From: Nitrosopumilus sp.
GTDB taxonomy: Archaea; Thermoproteota; Nitrososphaeria; Nitrososphaerales; Nitrosopumilaceae
Assembly: GCA_965218695.1 (NCBI GenBank)
Contig: OZ244651.1
Coordinates: 864,001 to 928,000 of the forward strand
Length of the DNA stretch: 64,000 nucleotides
Direction of reading: 5' to 3'
In this document: positions 35,019 through 51,455 of the stretch, piece after piece
How the letters are laid out: each line of letters begins with the position of its first letter
Position numbering within the stretch: the stretch's first letter is position 1
Notes under the pieces: generated by a model
What the model was told of the DNA's origin: nothing
The model's input: only the letters and a program-made list of their open reading frames with translations
Database searches by the model: none
Made by a program: the position numbers and the translations under genes

Positions 35019-35022
35019 TCTA

Positions 35023-35196
35023 TAGCGACACGCCAAAGTTCGTTCCAAGAAAATTACACCAAGCCGAAAACTTTGTAGATCACCTCATCCTTTGACACAA
35101 CATGGATGAAACAGAGCGGGAAGAACTCAAAAAGGCATACAGGAAGGAGAAAGATCCTAGGGTGGCTGCAAGAATGCTCGCGGCGCACGTGGTCTA
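35023..35196 (+). mobile_element. Left end and first codons of an IS630-family element (remnant)
   Basis: TA plus TIR TAGCGACACGCCAAAGTTCGT; ORF from 35102 (MDETEREELKKAYRKEKDPRVAARML) resembles the N-terminus of 21822-22829 and is cut by the next IS. Confidence 0.8.
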
Positions 35197-43978: not shown

Positions 43979-45505
43979 AGAAGCCATGCGTAATCCCTCC
44001 ATTTCGTTGGGTTAAACCAGAAAAACCCAGAAAATATTAAAAATTCTGATTTAATTCTCGCCATGTTAGCCATGTGGGGATCCTGTCCTGCCAGAAATAC
44101 AAAATAACGTGCGCAACCTTGCAGCACCACGATGTGCACGGAATTAATTGTTTGAAACGGCGCTGCCGGGGACGTTTGCCTCTTCCCAGTTTATTACCGG
44201 CCCCAGCGTGCTACCTGAAGGAGGTCCTTTCTTCATCTGGTTCCACACGAGGTCCAGGTTTACAAGCCCGGTTATTATGTTAAATTCCCTGTTAAAGTCG
44301 CCAATCTTTCCCTTGTATGGCGCGGTAAGCCGGCCGTACCGCTTCAGCCTGCCAATGGAGTGCTCTACCTTTACCCGGGCGGAATTGATTTTGTGGTTGT
44401 GTTCTTTTTCCTCCTTTGTAAAGCGCTTGTGGTTCTTGGTCTTCTTGTGCGGCTGCAGGGTGTTTGTACCGGGCATATCCTTTGCGATTCCCTTGTAACC
44501 GCGGTCAGTAAGGGTGTGGATCCTGTCCTCTTCGGGGGTGTTCTCGTCGCACATGCGGTCCCACCATTTTCCAAATGGCAGCGGGCTCTCCCTGAGCAGC
44601 GTGATGTCGTGGACGGATCCCACGGTGCTGCCGGATATGGCGACTATCACCCCGTTTTCATTTATGCAGACTGTGGTGTTGAGCGTGAATTTCTTCTTCT
44701 TGCCCGAATACATCATGCTCCTCATCTGTTTTTCGTCCGGCCTCTGTATGGGGCAGTGCGTGCCGTCGATCATCATGATGCCCCCGTCAGGTCCGGAAAT
44801 TATTTTTTTGAGATCCTCTTTTGTCTCCGTGTCTGCCATCTCCTTTGAGATGTTGGCAGCAGTGGGCAGCGCCACGTCAAGCACCTCGTCTAGTACATCG
44901 ATATACCGGGACACGGTTGCCTGGTCTATTCCAAAGAATGCCGCAAGCACGCCCTGCGTGGGATTGCCCTTTTTGTACATCAGTGACATGAGCAACGCGT
45001 GCCTTGGGTACAGCTTGCAGCGGTTCCCGGGATCCGATGCCCTCGTCTCGTCATTCCTGAAGAGTGGGGATTTGCCGCTTTGCCTTATCCACGCCTCGGC
45101 CCTGTCAAGTATGTATTGGAACTGTTCCCTGCACTTCAGCGTCGCGTCATGAAGCTTCTTCCCGACTCTGATGATGTCGTCAAGCACCTCCACGCGGTGC
45201 AACAGGGCGGGCTCTCCTGCGGCTCTAGATTCGGAACCGTCCCGTGTGCGCCACAGGCTTTGCTCGTGCCTGGCAGCTGCGTCCTGGCGCTTGATGTCAG
45301 CGTCCTGGCGCTTGATGTCAGCGTCCTGGCGCTTGATCATGTCTCTGAGAGCCTTATTCTCTTTTTGCAGGTCGCTTGTTTTCTGATTCGACAACAGTAT
45401 GAACCGGCATATTTTGGTTTTAATTGAATGGATCATAAATTTTTGACAGCAGGGCTAACATGTCAACGCGGAGTTTGAAAAAATTCTGGATTACGCATAT
45501 TTTCT
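43979..45505 (-). mobile_element. IS5-family (ISL2-like) element
   Basis: TIR AGAAGCCATGCGTAATCC / GGATTACGCATATTTTCT; ATT on both flanks. Confidence 0.88.
44144..45436 (-). CDS. IS5-family transposase with N-terminal heptad repeats
   Basis: IDGTHCPIQRP, YSGKKK, HD, DRGYKG, RVKVEHSIGRLK; IKRQDA repeated three times. Confidence 0.9.
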   Translation of the reverse strand: MIHSIKTKICRFILLSNQKTSDLQKENKALRDMIKRQDADIKRQDADIKRQDAAARHEQSLWRTRDGSESRAAGEPALLHRVEVLDDIIRVGKKLHDATLKCREQFQYILDRAEAWIRQSGKSPLFRNDETRASDPGNRCKLYPRHALLMSLMYKKGNPTQGVLAAFFGIDQATVSRYIDVLDEVLDVALPTAANISKEMADTETKEDLKKIISGPDGGIMMIDGTHCPIQRPDEKQMRSMMYSGKKKKFTLNTTVCINENGVIVAISGSTVGSVHDITLLRESPLPFGKWWDRMCDENTPEEDRIHTLTDRGYKGIAKDMPGTNTLQPHKKTKNHKRFTKEEKEHNHKINSARVKVEHSIGRLKRYGRLTAPYKGKIGDFNREFNIITGLVNLDLVWNQMKKGPPSGSTLGPVINWEEANVPGSAVSNN

Positions 45506-46072
45506 ATTCTGGCAAGAAGAAGAAATTCACGCTCAACACCACCGTGTGCATAAACGAAAACGGGGTGATAGTCGCCATATCCGGCAGCACCGTGGGATCC
45601 GTCCACGACATCACGCTGCTCAGGGAGAGCCCGCTGCCATTTGGAAAATGGTGGGACCGCATGTGCGACGAGAACACCCCCGAAGAGGACAGGGTCCACA
45701 CCCTTACTGACCGCGGCTACAAGGGAATTGCAAAGGATCTGCCCGGCACAAACACCCTGCAGCCGCACAAGAAGACCAAGAACCACAAGCGCTTTACAAA
45801 GGAGGAAAAAGAGCACAACCATAAAATCAACTCCGCCCGGGTAAAGGTGGAGCACTCCATCGGCAGGCTGAAGCGGTACGGCCGGCTTACCGCGCCATAC
45901 AAAGGAAAGATTGGCGACTTTAACAGGGAATTTAACATAATAGCCGGGCTTGTAAACCTGGACCTCGTGTGGAACTACCTGGAGAAGGGACCGCCTCCTT
46001 CAGGCGGCAATCTGGGGCCGGTGATAAACTGGGAACAGGCAAACGCCCCCGGCAGCGCCGTCTCAAACAATT

Positions 46073-47598
46073 GTAAGTGTTCACGTCGTGCCTAATTCAG
46101 TTCACTCTTGGGTAAATTTTGTGCAAACCACAGATCCAAATAGGATGGTAATCCAAACCCGATGTGAAAAGCCAGGCTGAACTCAAAAAGATGTACACGG
46201 ATCTCAAGACTGAGAACATCAAGCTCAAGCAGACGATTGAGATGCAAGGGCAGATAATTGAGGAATTGAATCTGGCAGTTGCTGATCTTAAGCGCAGGCT
46301 GGTGCGGCATGACAATTACAACACCCCGTCATCACAAAAAAGGGGGCCCGGATGGCCTGACACAAAGGGAAAAGGCGACGAAAAGAATGCCTACAATAAA
46401 TCCACAAAAGCCTCCCGGGATCAAAAGGACCGCGTGGATGCGGCCGGCAGCGGGAAGTCGCGCGGGGGGCAAAAAGGCCACATGGGCCGCACCCGCAAGC
46501 CAAAACCCACCGAGTTTGAGGAACACACCCCGGAGGCCTGCCCCGAATGCGGCTCGGGTAGCCTTTCCATAGTGCAGTCAGAAAAACGCGACATTACCAA
46601 GGTGGAGCGCACGATAAAGGTCATCACCACGCGCCACACCATAAACACGTGTCGCTGCTCCTGCGGTCTGGTGGACATCAAGCCCGAGACCGGCCTTCCA
46701 GACAAGGGCAGCTACGATCCGAGCATAACGACTGATGTTGCAGACGATTACGTGTGTCGCATGCCGTTTAGGATGATCGCAGACCGCATGTCGCGGTACG
46801 GAATTACACTCTCCTCGGGCACGGCGCACAACATAATGCGCAGGCTGGGAACGTCGCTGGGCGCCCCTGCGGCAGCCATTGCCGCCATGATACGCAAGGC
46901 CAAGATACTGCACGCCGACGAGACATCGATTCACCTAAACGGCCGCAACGTCTGGGTGTGGATACTGCACGATCCGCTGACCGGGCACGCGCTGTACGTG
47001 ATACGGGACAGCCGGGGGGCAAAGGTTCTGAAAGAAGCGCTTGGGGGTTGGGACGGCACGTTAGTGTGCGACGGCTGGACGGCGTACGGAAAATACCGCG
47101 TCCAGCGCTGCTGGTCGCACATAATACGCGAGGCCAGGGACATCTGCAACCGCAATCCGGACTGCCCAGGCGCGCGCAACGTCCTGAAGCACCTGCGCAT
47201 AATCTATGATTATGCCAGAAGGGCAAGCAGGAAACGCTCGCGCTCTCTCCGGGACAACGCGTCTGCCATGCTGACGTCATGCATCGAAAAGATCGTTGCA
47301 AGGTACGCCGACGATCCAATATTGGAAAAATTCATGGTCAAGATCAGCAATGCTGGCAGCGACCTGTTCCGGTTCGTGCTGAACCCAAAGATCCCGCCTA
47401 CAAACAATGCTGCAGAACGCGGGTTGCGCGAGATAGTCGTGCACAGAAAAATACGGGGCAGCATAAGGGCAGAGGAGACGATGACGTGGATGGCGAATTT
47501 CTTTTCATGTGTAATGACATGGAAAAACAAGAAATTGGATTACTTGGCGGAGATTGCAAAATACGCCTAAAAATGAGTTAAACCACGTGAACACTTAC
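46073..47598 (+). mobile_element. IS66-family element, second copy of 40429-41954
   Basis: Same TIRs and length; 8-bp TSD AAACAATT. Confidence 0.94.
46164..47570 (+). CDS. IS66-family transposase
   Basis: Protein identical to 40520-41926. Confidence 0.94.
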   Translation: MKSQAELKKMYTDLKTENIKLKQTIEMQGQIIEELNLAVADLKRRLVRHDNYNTPSSQKRGPGWPDTKGKGDEKNAYNKSTKASRDQKDRVDAAGSGKSRGGQKGHMGRTRKPKPTEFEEHTPEACPECGSGSLSIVQSEKRDITKVERTIKVITTRHTINTCRCSCGLVDIKPETGLPDKGSYDPSITTDVADDYVCRMPFRMIADRMSRYGITLSSGTAHNIMRRLGTSLGAPAAAIAAMIRKAKILHADETSIHLNGRNVWVWILHDPLTGHALYVIRDSRGAKVLKEALGGWDGTLVCDGWTAYGKYRVQRCWSHIIREARDICNRNPDCPGARNVLKHLRIIYDYARRASRKRSRSLRDNASAMLTSCIEKIVARYADDPILEKFMVKISNAGSDLFRFVLNPKIPPTNNAAERGLREIVVHRKIRGSIRAEETMTWMANFFSCVMTWKNKKLDYLAEIAKYA

Positions 47599-47773
47599 AA
47601 ACAATTAATCCCGTGCACATCGTGGTGCTGCAAGGCTGCGCACGTTATTTCGTATTTCGGGCAGGACAGGATCCCCACATGGCTAACATGGCGAGAATTA
47701 AATCAGAATTTTTAATATTTTCCGGAATTTTCCGGTTTAATCCAGCGAAATGGAAGGATTACGCATAGCTTCT

Positions 47774-48644
47774 ACTGGATCATGATCCAGTTGACCTTCC
47801 GGTTCGAATCTTTTTTCATCCTGCCGTGGTATGACGTGTCGCCTGACTGGTGCAGCGTCGGGCACATGCCCGCCCAGGATACGAACTTTTTCGGGTTCCC
47901 AAACCTACCGATGATGTCGATCTCCGCTGCCAGCAGCGCTGCAGAAAACATGTTCATTCCCGTCATACTCAGCAGCAGCTTCGGGGCGTGGGCGTCACGG
48001 ACGTAGCGCTTGATCTCGGCCTCGGTTCTTTTGATCTCGTCGTTGTAGTGCCGTATCTGTGATATGCAGCCGTCCAGCACGAACCTGTCCTGGGAATTCT
48101 TCAGGTCTGCCTCTTCAAGATACCTTAGGGTTTTTCCTCTCCAGACGCTGGTTCCGCCATTCTTTGGATTTATGTCGTATTTGTCCGTCAGCGTGTGCAC
48201 AAAGTTGATTACTTTTGTCCGGTCCTGCACCAGGGCCATCTGATACCTAAGGATCTGTTTCATTCCCCGGGATTCGGCCGAACCTATGTGGCAACTCGGA
48301 ATCAGGTCGGCTCGCAGCAGGTGGGCAAGCGTTCTTGCATCTATGATGTCATTCTTTATGCTGGCCCATGCGATTGCCTTGACCTTGAACGGATTAGCAA
48401 GCGTCAGCGGGACTCCAGCGGACTCAAAGGCATCGGCAGTCTTTATCCAGTGGTTTCCGGTGGATTCGCAGACTGCCCTGCACTGGCCGTATGTAGCCTT
48501 TACGTATGCTGCAAACTCTAATGCCTCTCGGGATGTGTTGTTGTACGACGACTCTTCCAGAATCGTTCCTTCATGTTTCATTACGCACGTTACACATTTT
48601 CTCTTTCCTATGTTGATTCCAATACTCTTTTCTATTTCTTTCAC
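47774..48644 (-). pseudogene. IS110-family recombinase, C-terminally truncated, first catalytic Asp replaced by Asn
   Basis: SIGINIGK (family GID), CESTG, KNDIIDA, GMCPTLHQSG; ATA where an ATG is expected after GGAGGTGA; cut by the IS5 end at 47773. Confidence 0.88.
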
Positions 48645-48808
48645 CTCCCTTTTTTTATGTGACAGGCTGGAAGCTGCAGACATCTATCAAGGCTCTAGAC
48701 CCAGTAACACAGCAGCTCGGATAGCCCCATTCACGAACCAGGTCTTTGTGACCATGTGCATTTAGGGGTCAGCCCGCCACATGTGGTGGGTGGGTGGGGT
48801 TATCATGT
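48645..48808 (-). ncRNA. Candidate IS110 bridge-RNA-like non-coding RNA
   Basis: About 165-nt non-coding end; stem GACCUGG/CUGGGUC encloses UUCGUGAAU, identical to the DNA flanking the element (48809-48817), an inner hairpin and a second loop strand. Confidence 0.62.
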
Positions 48809-48833
48809 ATTCACGAACTTTGGCGCGTTAGTA
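48809..48833 (+). mobile_element. Right-end remnant of an IS630-family element matching the left end at 35023
   Basis: Reverse complement TACTAACGCGCCAAAGTTCGT matches 35023-35043 at 17 of 21 positions in register; followed by TA. Confidence 0.7.
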
Positions 48834-48887
48834 TAGGTGGGCAACGACATGATTTTTGGATGCTGCGATTCTGAAACATTCTGTCAT

Positions 48888-49118
48888 TTAGAATCCAGTG
48901 GATACTCCCGGATAGTAATCAATGCCTGTCGGACTATACATGAACGCTATGTTTAGCACCAACTGCAGTGCCGTAAGACCAAGACCCAGATACAGGCATT
49001 TTTTTGCCTTTTGCGGATCATCACGTCTCAGTACAAAATATGCAATAATTCCTCCAAGCGCCCCGACTAATATTGGCAGCAAAAACCACCAGTTGCTTCG
49101 GGTTCTCTCCTCGTGCAT
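48888..49118 (-). CDS. Small hypothetical membrane protein
   Basis: WWFLLPIL...GGIIAYFVLRRDDPQKAKKCLYLG; two TM segments. Confidence 0.78.
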   Translation of the reverse strand: MHEERTRSNWWFLLPILVGALGGIIAYFVLRRDDPQKAKKCLYLGLGLTALQLVLNIAFMYSPTGIDYYPGVSTGF

Positions 49119-49308
49119 GATGCATGATGGGCATTTTTACTATTATTTCTTCTGTTGGCCTTTTGTTCCCGAATTTGTCCGGCATCCCCTGATCCTGCAA
49201 AAACCCTCTGTTACGTGGCCCTGCATGGCATTGCATAGACTGTTGTTGCACAGTCTGGCGCGGCACGGTATCTGGCAATATGACAGAAATGCCGAATTCC
49301 ATTCCGTG

Positions 49309-51455
49309 GTAAGAGGTCGCCTTTGCGAAGCGATTCCGTGCCTGATCTGTTCCGATTAATTACCAACTGAGCTACGTTTTTGACCATAAATACCCGATTA
49401 ATTGCACGTTATCAACACGGTCCTCAGGCAGGGCGGTTTTCGGATCAAGGCTCTTCCGGTTGGATCTTTTGCGCCGCATTTTCCGGCAGGCGCTGCGTGC
49501 CCAAAAGCTTTATGGATCATGCCTTCCCGTGTTATGGCGTGGTGCCTGTAATCGACTTGGAAAAGATTGACTGGAACTCCGTAACCGACACCAAGTCCCT
49601 CTTCGAATCCGTCTTGGACATGCTCAAATCCAAGGACGAGGAGAGCATGGCACTGAGAAAAGACATCGAGCAGCTGAAGGAGGAGGCAGAGGCCTTCTCA
49701 GGGGAACACGCGATGCTGACGGAGATGGATGCCAGGATCAAACTGCTGGAAGAAGAGAATGTGCAAAAGGACTCCGAGATAGAGAAACTGAGGGCAGAGA
49801 ATGCCGCCCTCCTGCAGGGATGCGACGTCTCGCAGGCAGTCATGGACAGGATAGCCCGCCTGGAGCAGCAGGCATCAGAGCATGCCTCTCAGTTAAGGGA
49901 GGCGCGCGCGGCCAACTCGGCGCTGGCAGCCGAGAATCTGGGCATCAAAAGCCGCCGCTCCCAGAAGCGGCTCCGGGAATCACCCGGGCCTGCGCCGGAC
50001 CCGTTCAGGAAGGTCGTCTGCCTGCGCACCGGCCGTGATCCTCCCCCGATATCCGAAAAAAAGCTAGTCGACATGCCCGCCTGCCCGCACGGCCATGCCC
50101 TCTCGAAGGAGCCCACCGAGGTGACCATCCGGGTAGTCGAGGAGATCATCGACGGGAAGCTGACCGGCATCCAGTATACCGTCGTCCGCAGGTACTGCGG
50201 GGAATGCGGCAGGCAGTTTGCCCCCGAGATCCCAGGGGTCGTCCCAGGGGGGCGGTTCGGCGCCAGCCTGACGTGCCTTGAGACGACGATGAGGATGTAC
50301 AACATTCCCTACGAACCCATCCGCAAGCTGATCAACATAATCTACCACGCAGGCCTTGCCAAGTCGACAGTCATCAGCCACGTGGATGCCGTTACGGGAT
50401 CCCTCCACCCGCTCTACGAGGAGATGCTCGAGGATATATTCTTCTCAGGGCATGTCTTTGGCGACGAGACCAGCTGGAGGGTAGCCGGGATACTGTACTG
50501 GCTGTGGATACTAGTCGGTGACAACTCGACTGTCTTTTACGTGGACAAGAGCCGGGGAGGAGACGTGCTGGAGACCCTGCTTGGAGGGTACGGCGGCCAC
50601 GTCACCTCTGATTCACACGCTGCGTGGAACCGCATCGGCAGGACCCACCAAAAGTGCCACTACCACTACCTCCGCGAGATCCTCCGCACCCTGACCATGA
50701 AGAACCCCGGGCCCGAATTCAAAAAGTTCGCCAAGGCCCTGAAGGGGATAATCACCGATTCCTGGTTCCCGGAGAAGGGACTCGACCCGGACGACGACGA
50801 GGCCACGCGAAACCTCAAGGTGCGCAACCTATTGGCCAGGGTGAGGCGCCTGATCTCCGGCGAGTATACAGACGCCCACTGCAAGCGGTTTGTCAAGCGG
50901 CTGCGGCGCGAGATCACCCACCTGTTCCCATTCATCCGCCTCAACACAAAGTGCCATAACAACGATGCCGAGCGCCCCCTGCGGCCCAGCGTCGCATCCC
51001 GGAAGGTCTCAGGCGGCAGCAAGAGCCTTGCCGGCGCATACAACCACGCCGTCCTGGCCACCGTCCGCGAGACGTGCAGGAGGCGCGGAGTCAACCCGCA
51101 TGACTTTTTGGTTGACTATATGCACGGTCTTGTCGAAAAAATTCCGACAGGAGCAGCAGCAACTGCATAAATCCTGCAAAATCCACTCCCTGACTGTTCC
51201 ATGCAGACCCGTCGCGCCGGCAGCCTGGCATAACCTCGCCTGATCCCGGCACAATTCACCGCCCGGCCGCTTCAAAAAAGGCCACTTCGCAAACCCGATC
51301 ACCGGATCGGCCAAAACGTAGCTCAGTCTGACCCTCCCGGAAAAAACCTGAAATAATGCCAATTAAATGGGCATTTACGGCCGAAAACGTAGCTCAGTTG
51401 GTAATTAATCGGGGCAGATCAGGCACGGAATCGCTTCGCAAAGGCGACCTCTTAC
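49309..51455 (+). mobile_element. IS66-family element with very long TIRs, copy B
   Basis: Same approximately 96-bp TIRs as 31845-34096; 8-bp TSD ATTCCGTG. Confidence 0.93.
49539..51170 (+). CDS. IS66-family transposase
   Basis: Close paralog of 32079-33773, lacking 21 aa of coiled coil; start uncertain. Confidence 0.92.
   Translation: MVPVIDLEKIDWNSVTDTKSLFESVLDMLKSKDEESMALRKDIEQLKEEAEAFSGEHAMLTEMDARIKLLEEENVQKDSEIEKLRAENAALLQGCDVSQAVMDRIARLEQQASEHASQLREARAANSALAAENLGIKSRRSQKRLRESPGPAPDPFRKVVCLRTGRDPPPISEKKLVDMPACPHGHALSKEPTEVTIRVVEEIIDGKLTGIQYTVVRRYCGECGRQFAPEIPGVVPGGRFGASLTCLETTMRMYNIPYEPIRKLINIIYHAGLAKSTVISHVDAVTGSLHPLYEEMLEDIFFSGHVFGDETSWRVAGILYWLWILVGDNSTVFYVDKSRGGDVLETLLGGYGGHVTSDSHAAWNRIGRTHQKCHYHYLREILRTLTMKNPGPEFKKFAKALKGIITDSWFPEKGLDPDDDEATRNLKVRNLLARVRRLISGEYTDAHCKRFVKRLRREITHLFPFIRLNTKCHNNDAERPLRPSVASRKVSGGSKSLAGAYNHAVLATVRETCRRRGVNPHDFLVDYMHGLVEKIPTGAAATA

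Follow-up and report, generated by a model that had tools for sequence, protein, structure and literature searches.

A predicted bridge RNA in the non-coding end of a dead archaeal IS110-family element at an IS630-family terminal repeat

Results and discussion

An IS110-family remnant within a nest of insertion sequences

The stretch of DNA analysed here (the window, 64,000 nucleotides) belongs to an archaeon, as the best Rfam matches of its SSU and LSU rRNA genes are to archaeal models, and contains a nest of insertion sequences at 44-51 kb. In this nest lies the minus-strand remnant of an IS110-family element, whose left end abuts the remnant of an IS630-family terminal inverted repeat (TIR) and whose other end stops at an IS66-family element. 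The features of the locus are the following:

47600-47774, plus strand: right end of an IS66-family element (its ORF, 46164-47570, matches Pfam DDE_Tnp_IS66), which cuts off the IS110 element
47774-48813, minus strand: remnant of the IS110-family element, with left end, predicted bridge RNA and truncated recombinase gene, and without right end
47775-48650, minus strand: recombinase pseudogene (DEDD_Tnp_IS110 and Transposase_20), with the first catalytic Asp changed to Asn and the last 69 residues missing
48657-48782, minus strand: predicted bridge RNA, in which a closing stem (P1) surrounds a target-binding and a donor-binding loop (RNAalifold consensus)
48797-48806, minus strand: left subterminal inverted repeat AUGAUAACCC, 7 nt inside the end (read by eye)
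48812-48813, minus strand: core dinucleotide TG at the left junction, the first conserved dinucleotide on the left and the last on the right in all copies
48814-48835, minus strand: remnant of the IS630-family TIR, TATACTAACGCGCCAAAGTTCG, the last 5-6 bases of which are the left target (LT)

Two IS66-family ends flank the locus, one at 47600-47774 (175 bp, about 30 genome copies, all ending at or near 47774) and one at 49309-49513 (about 10 copies). Contigs of the sequencing runs X1 and X2 join position 47774 directly to 49308, so that 1533 bp are skipped, with just 28 letters on the shorter side of the joint; this could represent a different locus at which IS66 ends abut, or a circle or tandem junction. 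Between the IS630 TIR remnant and the second IS66-like end there is a minus-strand ORF of 76 aa (48888-49118) with hydrophobic stretches, for which the Pfam matches were all sub-threshold (TspO_MBR, YLATT) and to which related DNA (73-78% identity) is found at three other places in the genome. Further to the left, two transposase genes of DDE_Tnp_4 type (IS5/Harbinger-like), of which one is complete and the other a fragment, are arranged head to head at 44144-46095.

The recombinase gene is defective

The minus-strand ORF at 47772-48683 carries both Pfam domains of IS110-family recombinases, PF01548 (E = 2e-21) followed by PF02371 (E = 1.9e-15). The same two domains are found in an intact paralogue of 362 aa from the same genome, c243k (E = 1.2e-23 and 7.6e-25, respectively), which is a distant homologue of the structurally solved recombinases of IS621 (E = 2.3e-12) and ISCro4 (E = 1.4e-11), and whose motifs IGID, CESTG, NDTIDAR and HQSG align with the Asp/Glu/Asp/Asp/Ser motifs of IS621. 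The window protein is 78% identical to that of c243k. The catalytic residue set is complete in c243k and incomplete in the window copy, which reads IGINIG where the paralogue has IGIDIG and lacks the last 69 residues. As judged by its sequence, then, the window copy is dead through the D-to-N change, the lost C-terminus and the lost right end, in agreement with an earlier reading of the window made from its letters only (the sequence-only reading), which had described this recombinase copy as looking inactive.

Element boundaries and the TG core

The 2.63-Mb genome to which the window belongs contains nine longer relatives of the element (77-89% identity) as well as fragments. In a search of this genome, similarity to the nine longer copies ran from 48813/48818 down to 47774, where it stopped abruptly. 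Full copies measure about 1535 bp and have a right end of the form ...GGGTTA(A)CATAGATG, and it is by comparison with these that the window copy is seen to be without a right end. In 14 copies and fragments of the genome, aligned at their left junctions, the conserved sequence begins with TGAAT (from 48813 downward), and the five bases outside it (48818-48814) vary by subfamily. Several copies have long flanks in common (for example c2050k/c393k/c630k and c243k/c778k), so that some of the insertions are not independent.

The conserved sequence starts with TG-AAT and finishes with ...CATAGA-TG in all copies. The target of copy c243k is an IS5-like element (DDE_Tnp_1), at whose tip it is inserted, and four uninterrupted copies of that element read (C/G)TAGCGTGT-TG-CATAATTCAAC (also given as TAGCGTGT-TG-CATAATTC), with a single TG between the left target and the right target (RT). 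A single TG in the uninterrupted targets together with a TG at both element ends fits recombination at a shared TG core. Inside the termini, as read by eye, the right ends have the form GGGTTA(A)CAT followed by AGA and TG, and the subterminal repeat ATG(A/T)TAACCC is 10 bp long with one mismatch, one base shorter in c243k. The terminal extensions outside the repeats are TGAATAC (7 nt) on the left and AGA (3 nt) on the right.

The non-coding end folds as a predicted bridge RNA

The RNA was studied in an alignment of left ends from 30 copies. These stem from 17 genomes, namely the window genome and 16 out of 200 others sampled from its family, and 8 of 27 genera are represented, among them the window's own. 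Since related copies in the alignment are not independent, the counts below overstate independence. The RNAalifold consensus of the 30 copies comprises 27 pairs in five helices, and 15 of these pairs show compensatory changes. P1 is a closing stem of 9 bp with covariation in eight of its nine pairs. A CCCC/GGGG stem (P3) closes the first loop, which holds hairpin P2, and a GAGCUGC/GCAGCUU stem (P4) closes the second loop, which holds hairpin P5. The parts of the two loops, all on the minus strand, are listed in the order of the RNA:

48755-48763: RTG, the right target guide, AAAUGCACA; it occupies the 5' side of loop 1 and is the complement of core plus right target (top strand)
48741-48753: hairpin P2 (GGUC/GACC) of the target loop, with two-sided changes at pair 123/135 in 5 rows and at pair 124/134 in 14
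48732-48738: left target guide (LTG), GUUCG and core-binding UG, 3' side of loop 1
48706-48711: RDG, the right donor guide, UGUGUU; it occupies the 5' side of loop 2 and is the complement of AAUACA, positions 3-8 of the element
48690-48702: hairpin P5 of the donor loop, with four of four pairs changed on both sides
48681-48687: left donor guide (LDG), AUAGA and core-binding UG, 3' side of loop 2, equal to the right end of intact copies (CATAGA-TG)

When the consensus structure was taken together with six RNA-DNA pairs, 92.7% of 987 alignment cells were paired, compared with 34.8-48.3% after sliding by 1-3 columns. Changes on both sides were seen in 18 of the 33 pairs, and none of 500 shuffles reached any of these measures. 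A single-sequence fold of the window RNA (-61 kcal/mol, z = -3.08) is in agreement with the consensus. An Rfam 15 scan of 47500-49500 with E up to 10 returned chance-level matches only (CRISPR-DR29 and mir-200), and Rfam may contain no bridge-RNA model. No RNA-seq run was listed as containing the sequence when the intact copy was searched for. On the basis of the covarying 27-pair consensus, the non-coding 5' end of the element is predicted to encode a bridge (or seek) RNA; the bridge-RNA-like molecule proposed in the sequence-only reading is thus upheld, and its donor loop, left unresolved there, is resolved by the 30-copy alignment.

Four guides vary with their DNA partners

In the alignment, RTG (columns 112-120) stands before LTG (columns 139-145), and all four guides are located upstream of the recombinase gene. 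Matches of LTG, RTG and LDG to the DNA were counted by eye. In 16 of the 30 rows, representing 12 different guide sequences, the five bases of LTG are identical to those of the flank, the chance expectation being about 0.001 per row; just 2-3 of six positions match in G080b, G016a, G145 and G097b. The five bases preceding UGAAU in the loop vary as the flank does, being GTTCG in the window copy and fragment c376k, GTTGT in c2050k, CCTGT in c1622k, TCTGT in c1845k and TTAGT in a copy on contig C2. The AAU that follows LTG (48731-48729) is invariant among the aligned copies, and completes a 10-mer, ATTCACGAAC on the plus strand and GTTCGTGAAT on the minus strand, which occurs, as had been noticed earlier, at both 48729-48738 and 48809-48818. 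The second of these occurrences had been described as abutting the element; this holds for its outer five bases, which are flank, while its inner TG and AAT are the core and the first bases of the element itself. The earlier view that a guide in the loop matches the insertion site is borne out, in that (G)UUCG-UG equals the flank.

With regard to RTG, which is followed directly by U48754, the right flank is known for 12 guide/target combinations; over these, 55 of 72 non-core positions pair, where 37.5% would be expected with wobble allowed. All eight positions pair in c192k, c243k/c778k, c2257k, G014b and G059, seven in G014a, and six in G041, G063a and G135a; pairing is poorer in G019 (five of eight, mostly wobble), in G071a (three of eight) and in c2050k/c393k (three of eight in register, six with a shift by one). 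Because the window copy has no right end, its right target was inferred from paralogous TIRs: the window RTG pairs with TGTGCG of uninterrupted IS630 TIRs at six of eight positions.

As to the donor loop, the RDG helix (columns 55-60 with 167-173) has 87.8% of its cells paired and changes on both sides in three of six pairs; compensatory changes between the right donor (RD) and RDG are seen in G016, G135 and others, and RDG shows no pairing with the core. LDG occurs in two variants, AUAGAUG and AUAGGUG, and in all eight genomes in which a right end was found the variant present is the same as the right-end sequence; the right ends were read from a pattern scan and a ragged MAFFT alignment of right-end windows. 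Since the donor ends vary little, this concordance comes down to one A/G position. As read from these alignments, the four guides co-vary with their DNA partners. A handshake role was also considered for the two bases that follow LDG and was rejected, since their agreement with the right flank (8 of 24 positions) is near the chance level.

The target is a fixed position in IS630-family terminal repeats

The flank of the window copy matches a 24-nt TIR pattern that has 15 matches in the genome, compared with none for the reversed control, and it aligns with uninterrupted TIRs, in keeping with the earlier statement that the 10-mer overlaps an IS630 TIR. The host element is 1.1 kb long and present in dozens of diverged copies, both ends of which start with TATAGC...; as its transposase matches DDE_3 (E = 6.6e-24) and HTH_32 (E = 2.4e-13), we assign it to the IS630 family. 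Uninterrupted IS630 ends read ...CGCGCCAAA(G/A)TT(C/T)G-TG-TGCGAATAATCG, or end in ...TG-TGGAGC or TG-CAGTCT; the form that concerns the window is ...AAAGTTCG-TG-TGCGAAT... At least eight unoccupied TIRs carry AAGTTCGTG.

The position occupied in the window's TIR is also occupied elsewhere, namely by fragment c376k in the same genome, by G110a in another genome of the genus, and by a relative found as a loose contig end in runs X1, X3 and X4 of one study. The RTG of G110a predicts TG-CAGTC, which is an existing TIR variant; the right end of this copy was not found in L032 or L076, and a further insertion sequence interrupts its 3' region. Contigs of runs X1-X4 contain the window junction without differences, and these runs may be the source sample. 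Sister subfamilies are found at other targets, such as the IS5-like tip and, by our reading for c2050k, a DDE_Tnp_4 transposase gene, where the insertion lies in a conserved motif. As predicted from its guides and flanks, the programmed target of the window's subfamily is position 21-24 of IS630-family TIRs (...AAAGTTCG-TG-TGCG...), and the insertion site is an IS630-family end, as the sequence-only reading had stated.

At 35021-35044 the window contains, in addition, an unoccupied IS630-family TIR, ...CAAAGTTCG-TT, which has the cognate left target and TT in place of the TG core.

Proposed mechanism and alternative explanations

With the element boundaries, RNA fold, guide-DNA covariation, target identity and gene defects shown above, we consider it very probable that the remnant is a dead archaeal insertion sequence of the IS110 family, IS1111-like in type, the 5' non-coding end of which encodes a bridge (seek) RNA that would read the two ends of the element as well as the place where it lands. 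Transcription, RNA-protein binding and chemistry are inferred by analogy with IS621 and ISEc11. The long closing stem would hold the two loops in one molecule, in which the 5' side of the donor loop (UGUGUU) would pair with the left end and its 3' side (AUAGA-UG) would match the right end. A tetramer of the DEDD/Ser recombinase, together with the RNA, would then recombine the circular junction of right end and left end, expected as ...CATAGA-TG-AATACATG, with the target at the shared TG core. The right end of the window copy was removed on arrival of the IS66-like element.

The sequence-only reading had arranged the parts differently, with core AT, a loop closed by GACCUGG/CUGGGUC, UUCGUGAAU as the left and GUGUUA as the right guide, and a predicted target TTCGTGAATAAC(AC), on the plus strand GTGTTATTCACGAAC. 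All of these letters are present in the window, and the left guide proposed there overlaps the true LTG. The alignments nevertheless leave this arrangement hardly credible. Its three helices (CAUGUG/CACAUG, GACCUGG/CUGGGUC and GGCU/AGCU) have 64.9% of their cells paired across the 30 copies, a value equalled or exceeded by 168 of 500 shuffles, and their covariation is 0.097 compared with 0.099 in the shuffled alignments. The core is TG (48813-48812), and the AAT is the element's own start, which is kept in all copies regardless of the flank. The uninterrupted IS630 ends examined read ...GTTCG TG TGCG.../TGGAGC... and never ...GTGAATAAC, and the predicted target is absent from them. GUGUUA (48705-48710), finally, overlaps RDG, the segment that co-varies with the left end of the element, and the real right target guide, AAAUGCACA (48763-48755), lies on the 5' side of the target loop. 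That the 10-mer is a chance or internal repeat is a practically negligible explanation. It occurs six times on both strands of the genome, where we estimate about five by chance, and two of these occurrences are in unrelated contexts (C5:350 and C9:14598); the other four, however, are the loop and junction of the window copy and of fragment c376k, and we estimate the probability of a second copy within 80 nt at about 1e-4. The element boundary at 48813 places the outer five bases outside the conserved sequence, and since the five bases of the loop differ between subfamilies in step with this flank, the repeat is neither accidental nor internal, the latter having been named in the sequence-only reading as what would speak against it.

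The non-coding end might also be an mRNA leader only, for instance a translational regulator, the flank matches then being by-products of co-duplication with the host repeats. The 3' strand of the closing stem does lie about 10 nt upstream of a ribosome-binding motif, GGAGGUGA, and the long flanks common to several copies make the insertions partly non-independent. Co-duplication, on the other hand, is unable to bring 12 distinct loop sequences into agreement with as many distinct flanks, or to make the other side of the loop complementary to the opposite flank 1.5 kb away, and a leader gives no account of a second loop that tracks the element's own two ends; we therefore hold this explanation to be highly improbable. 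Very unlikely, too, is that the target-loop half alone acts as a short seekRNA, as in ISEc11, and that the donor-loop matches reflect ends recognised by protein instead of RNA-DNA pairing. In its favour, seekRNAs of 70-100 nt with target matches sufficed for movement of IS1111-type elements, according to PMC11187229, and the small variation of the donor ends, with its one informative A/G position in LDG, as well as the lack of core pairing by RDG, would suit such a model. It is countered by the compensatory RD-RDG changes, with three of six pairs doubly changed, by the LDG concordance in eight of eight genomes, and by P1, which joins both loops in one molecule and covaries in eight of nine pairs.

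Comparison with known systems

The closest known systems include the IS1111 group (ISEc11, ISKpn4, ISPa11), with which the archaeal elements have in common the DEDD recombinase, subterminal repeats, terminal extensions of 7 and 3 nt, guide order and natural reprogramming. As described by Siddiquee et al. 2024 (PMC11187229), seekRNAs of the IS1111 type carry the top-strand complement first, the subterminal repeats are 11-13 bp with extensions of 7 (or 6) and 3 bp, and the RNA lies downstream of the recombinase gene with few upstream exceptions such as ISMtsp17. In the elements studied here, by contrast, the RNA is upstream of the gene, the subterminal repeat has 10 bp, one of them mismatched, the host is archaeal and a 3' non-coding region of 280 nt is present.

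For IS621, Durrant et al. 2024 (PMC11208160) and Hiraizumi et al. 2024 (PMC11208158) describe an RNA with LTG 5' and RTG 3' in the loop, a CT core and a separate 5' stem-loop. Alike are the position of the RNA in the left end upstream of the gene and the presence of two loops, one reading the target and one the donor, each built as stem, guide, hairpin, guide and stem. Compared with these descriptions, the guide order is reversed in the archaeal RNA (right guide 5' and left guide 3' in both loops), the core is TG and not CT, a long closing stem surrounds both loops in place of a separate 5' stem-loop, and RDG does not pair with the core. A sigma-70 junction promoter is not expected in an archaeon. 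Bacterial IS110/IS1111-family elements in the 38-bp repeats of Tn3-family transposons resemble the present case in that they prefer a site of fixed position and orientation within the inverted repeat of another element; here, however, the targets are archaeal IS630-family TIRs and, for the sister subfamilies, an IS5-like tip and a motif of a DDE_Tnp_4 gene.

Archaeal IS110 recombinases are known, 662 being given by Vaysset et al. (bioRxiv 10.1101/2024.06.21.599552), and a 2026 preprint (10.64898/2026.10.21.760802) reports 32,190 bridge RNA loci and 86 models from bacterial and archaeal genomes. A non-exhaustive literature search returned no paper on the present archaeal family, which may be listed in the supplementary tables of such catalogues. 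Since large bridge-RNA catalogues exist, the gain offered here is one of detail and not of principle. The family provides a natural example of reprogramming: within a single archaeal family of genomes there are at least 12 guide sequences, and every one of them matches the site where its copy has landed. A bridge/seek-RNA mechanism, which in the literature compared was demonstrated at the bench in bacterial elements only, appears to be fully encoded in these archaeal elements, which combine the end geometry and guide order of the IS1111 type with the RNA position of the IS110 type. With about 360 aa the recombinases of the family are compact, and their TG core is defined; landing inside other insertion sequences would amount to a safe-haven or hyperparasitic lifestyle.

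A possible promoter in the target, and further observations

At the start of the IS630 TIR there is a TATA-like box, TATAGC/TATACT, and the IS630 transposase gene lies downstream of it. It is conceivable, though doubtful, that the choice of target also supplies a promoter: the IS110 element enters about 22 bp downstream of the TATA-like box, always left end first, so that a host promoter might transcribe the bridge RNA and recombinase and replace the circle-junction sigma-70 promoter of bacterial IS110 elements. If so, dead copies with an intact-looking RNA could guide the recombinases of intact sisters (78-89% identical) in trans to IS630 ends.

A search of genome contigs for related loci returned two, one of which is a partial match of 22%. 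The other, on a contig titled Nitrosopumilus MAG (L074), encodes a recombinase that is 66% identical over residues 5-283, which could reflect transfer between archaeal lineages or a binning artefact.

Intact copies have a 3' non-coding region of 280 nt (L005 1012-1291, minus strand; c243k), compared with 160 nt for the 5' region. It contains a conserved GGGATTATGC(A/G)TGTCAC between CCCCG and CGGGG, and in c243k 11 of these conserved bases equal the copy's own right target guide. In c192k and c2050k this region is interrupted by an insertion sequence with more than 30 copies that starts with GGTGTGTCCTAGAGGC (L002 at about 2947, equal to G000 C1:194236, and L003); the insertion adjoins a CTGC(A/T)TGCAGG palindrome, which is present on both sides, and a relative of this insertion sequence interrupts G110a in another genome (L076 at about 875). 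At C1:2266390-2266648 of the window genome (G000), two IS110 right-end fragments stand back to back, and after each of them comes TG-TGGATCT, similar to TGGATC/TGGAGC, the right target in IS630 TIRs.
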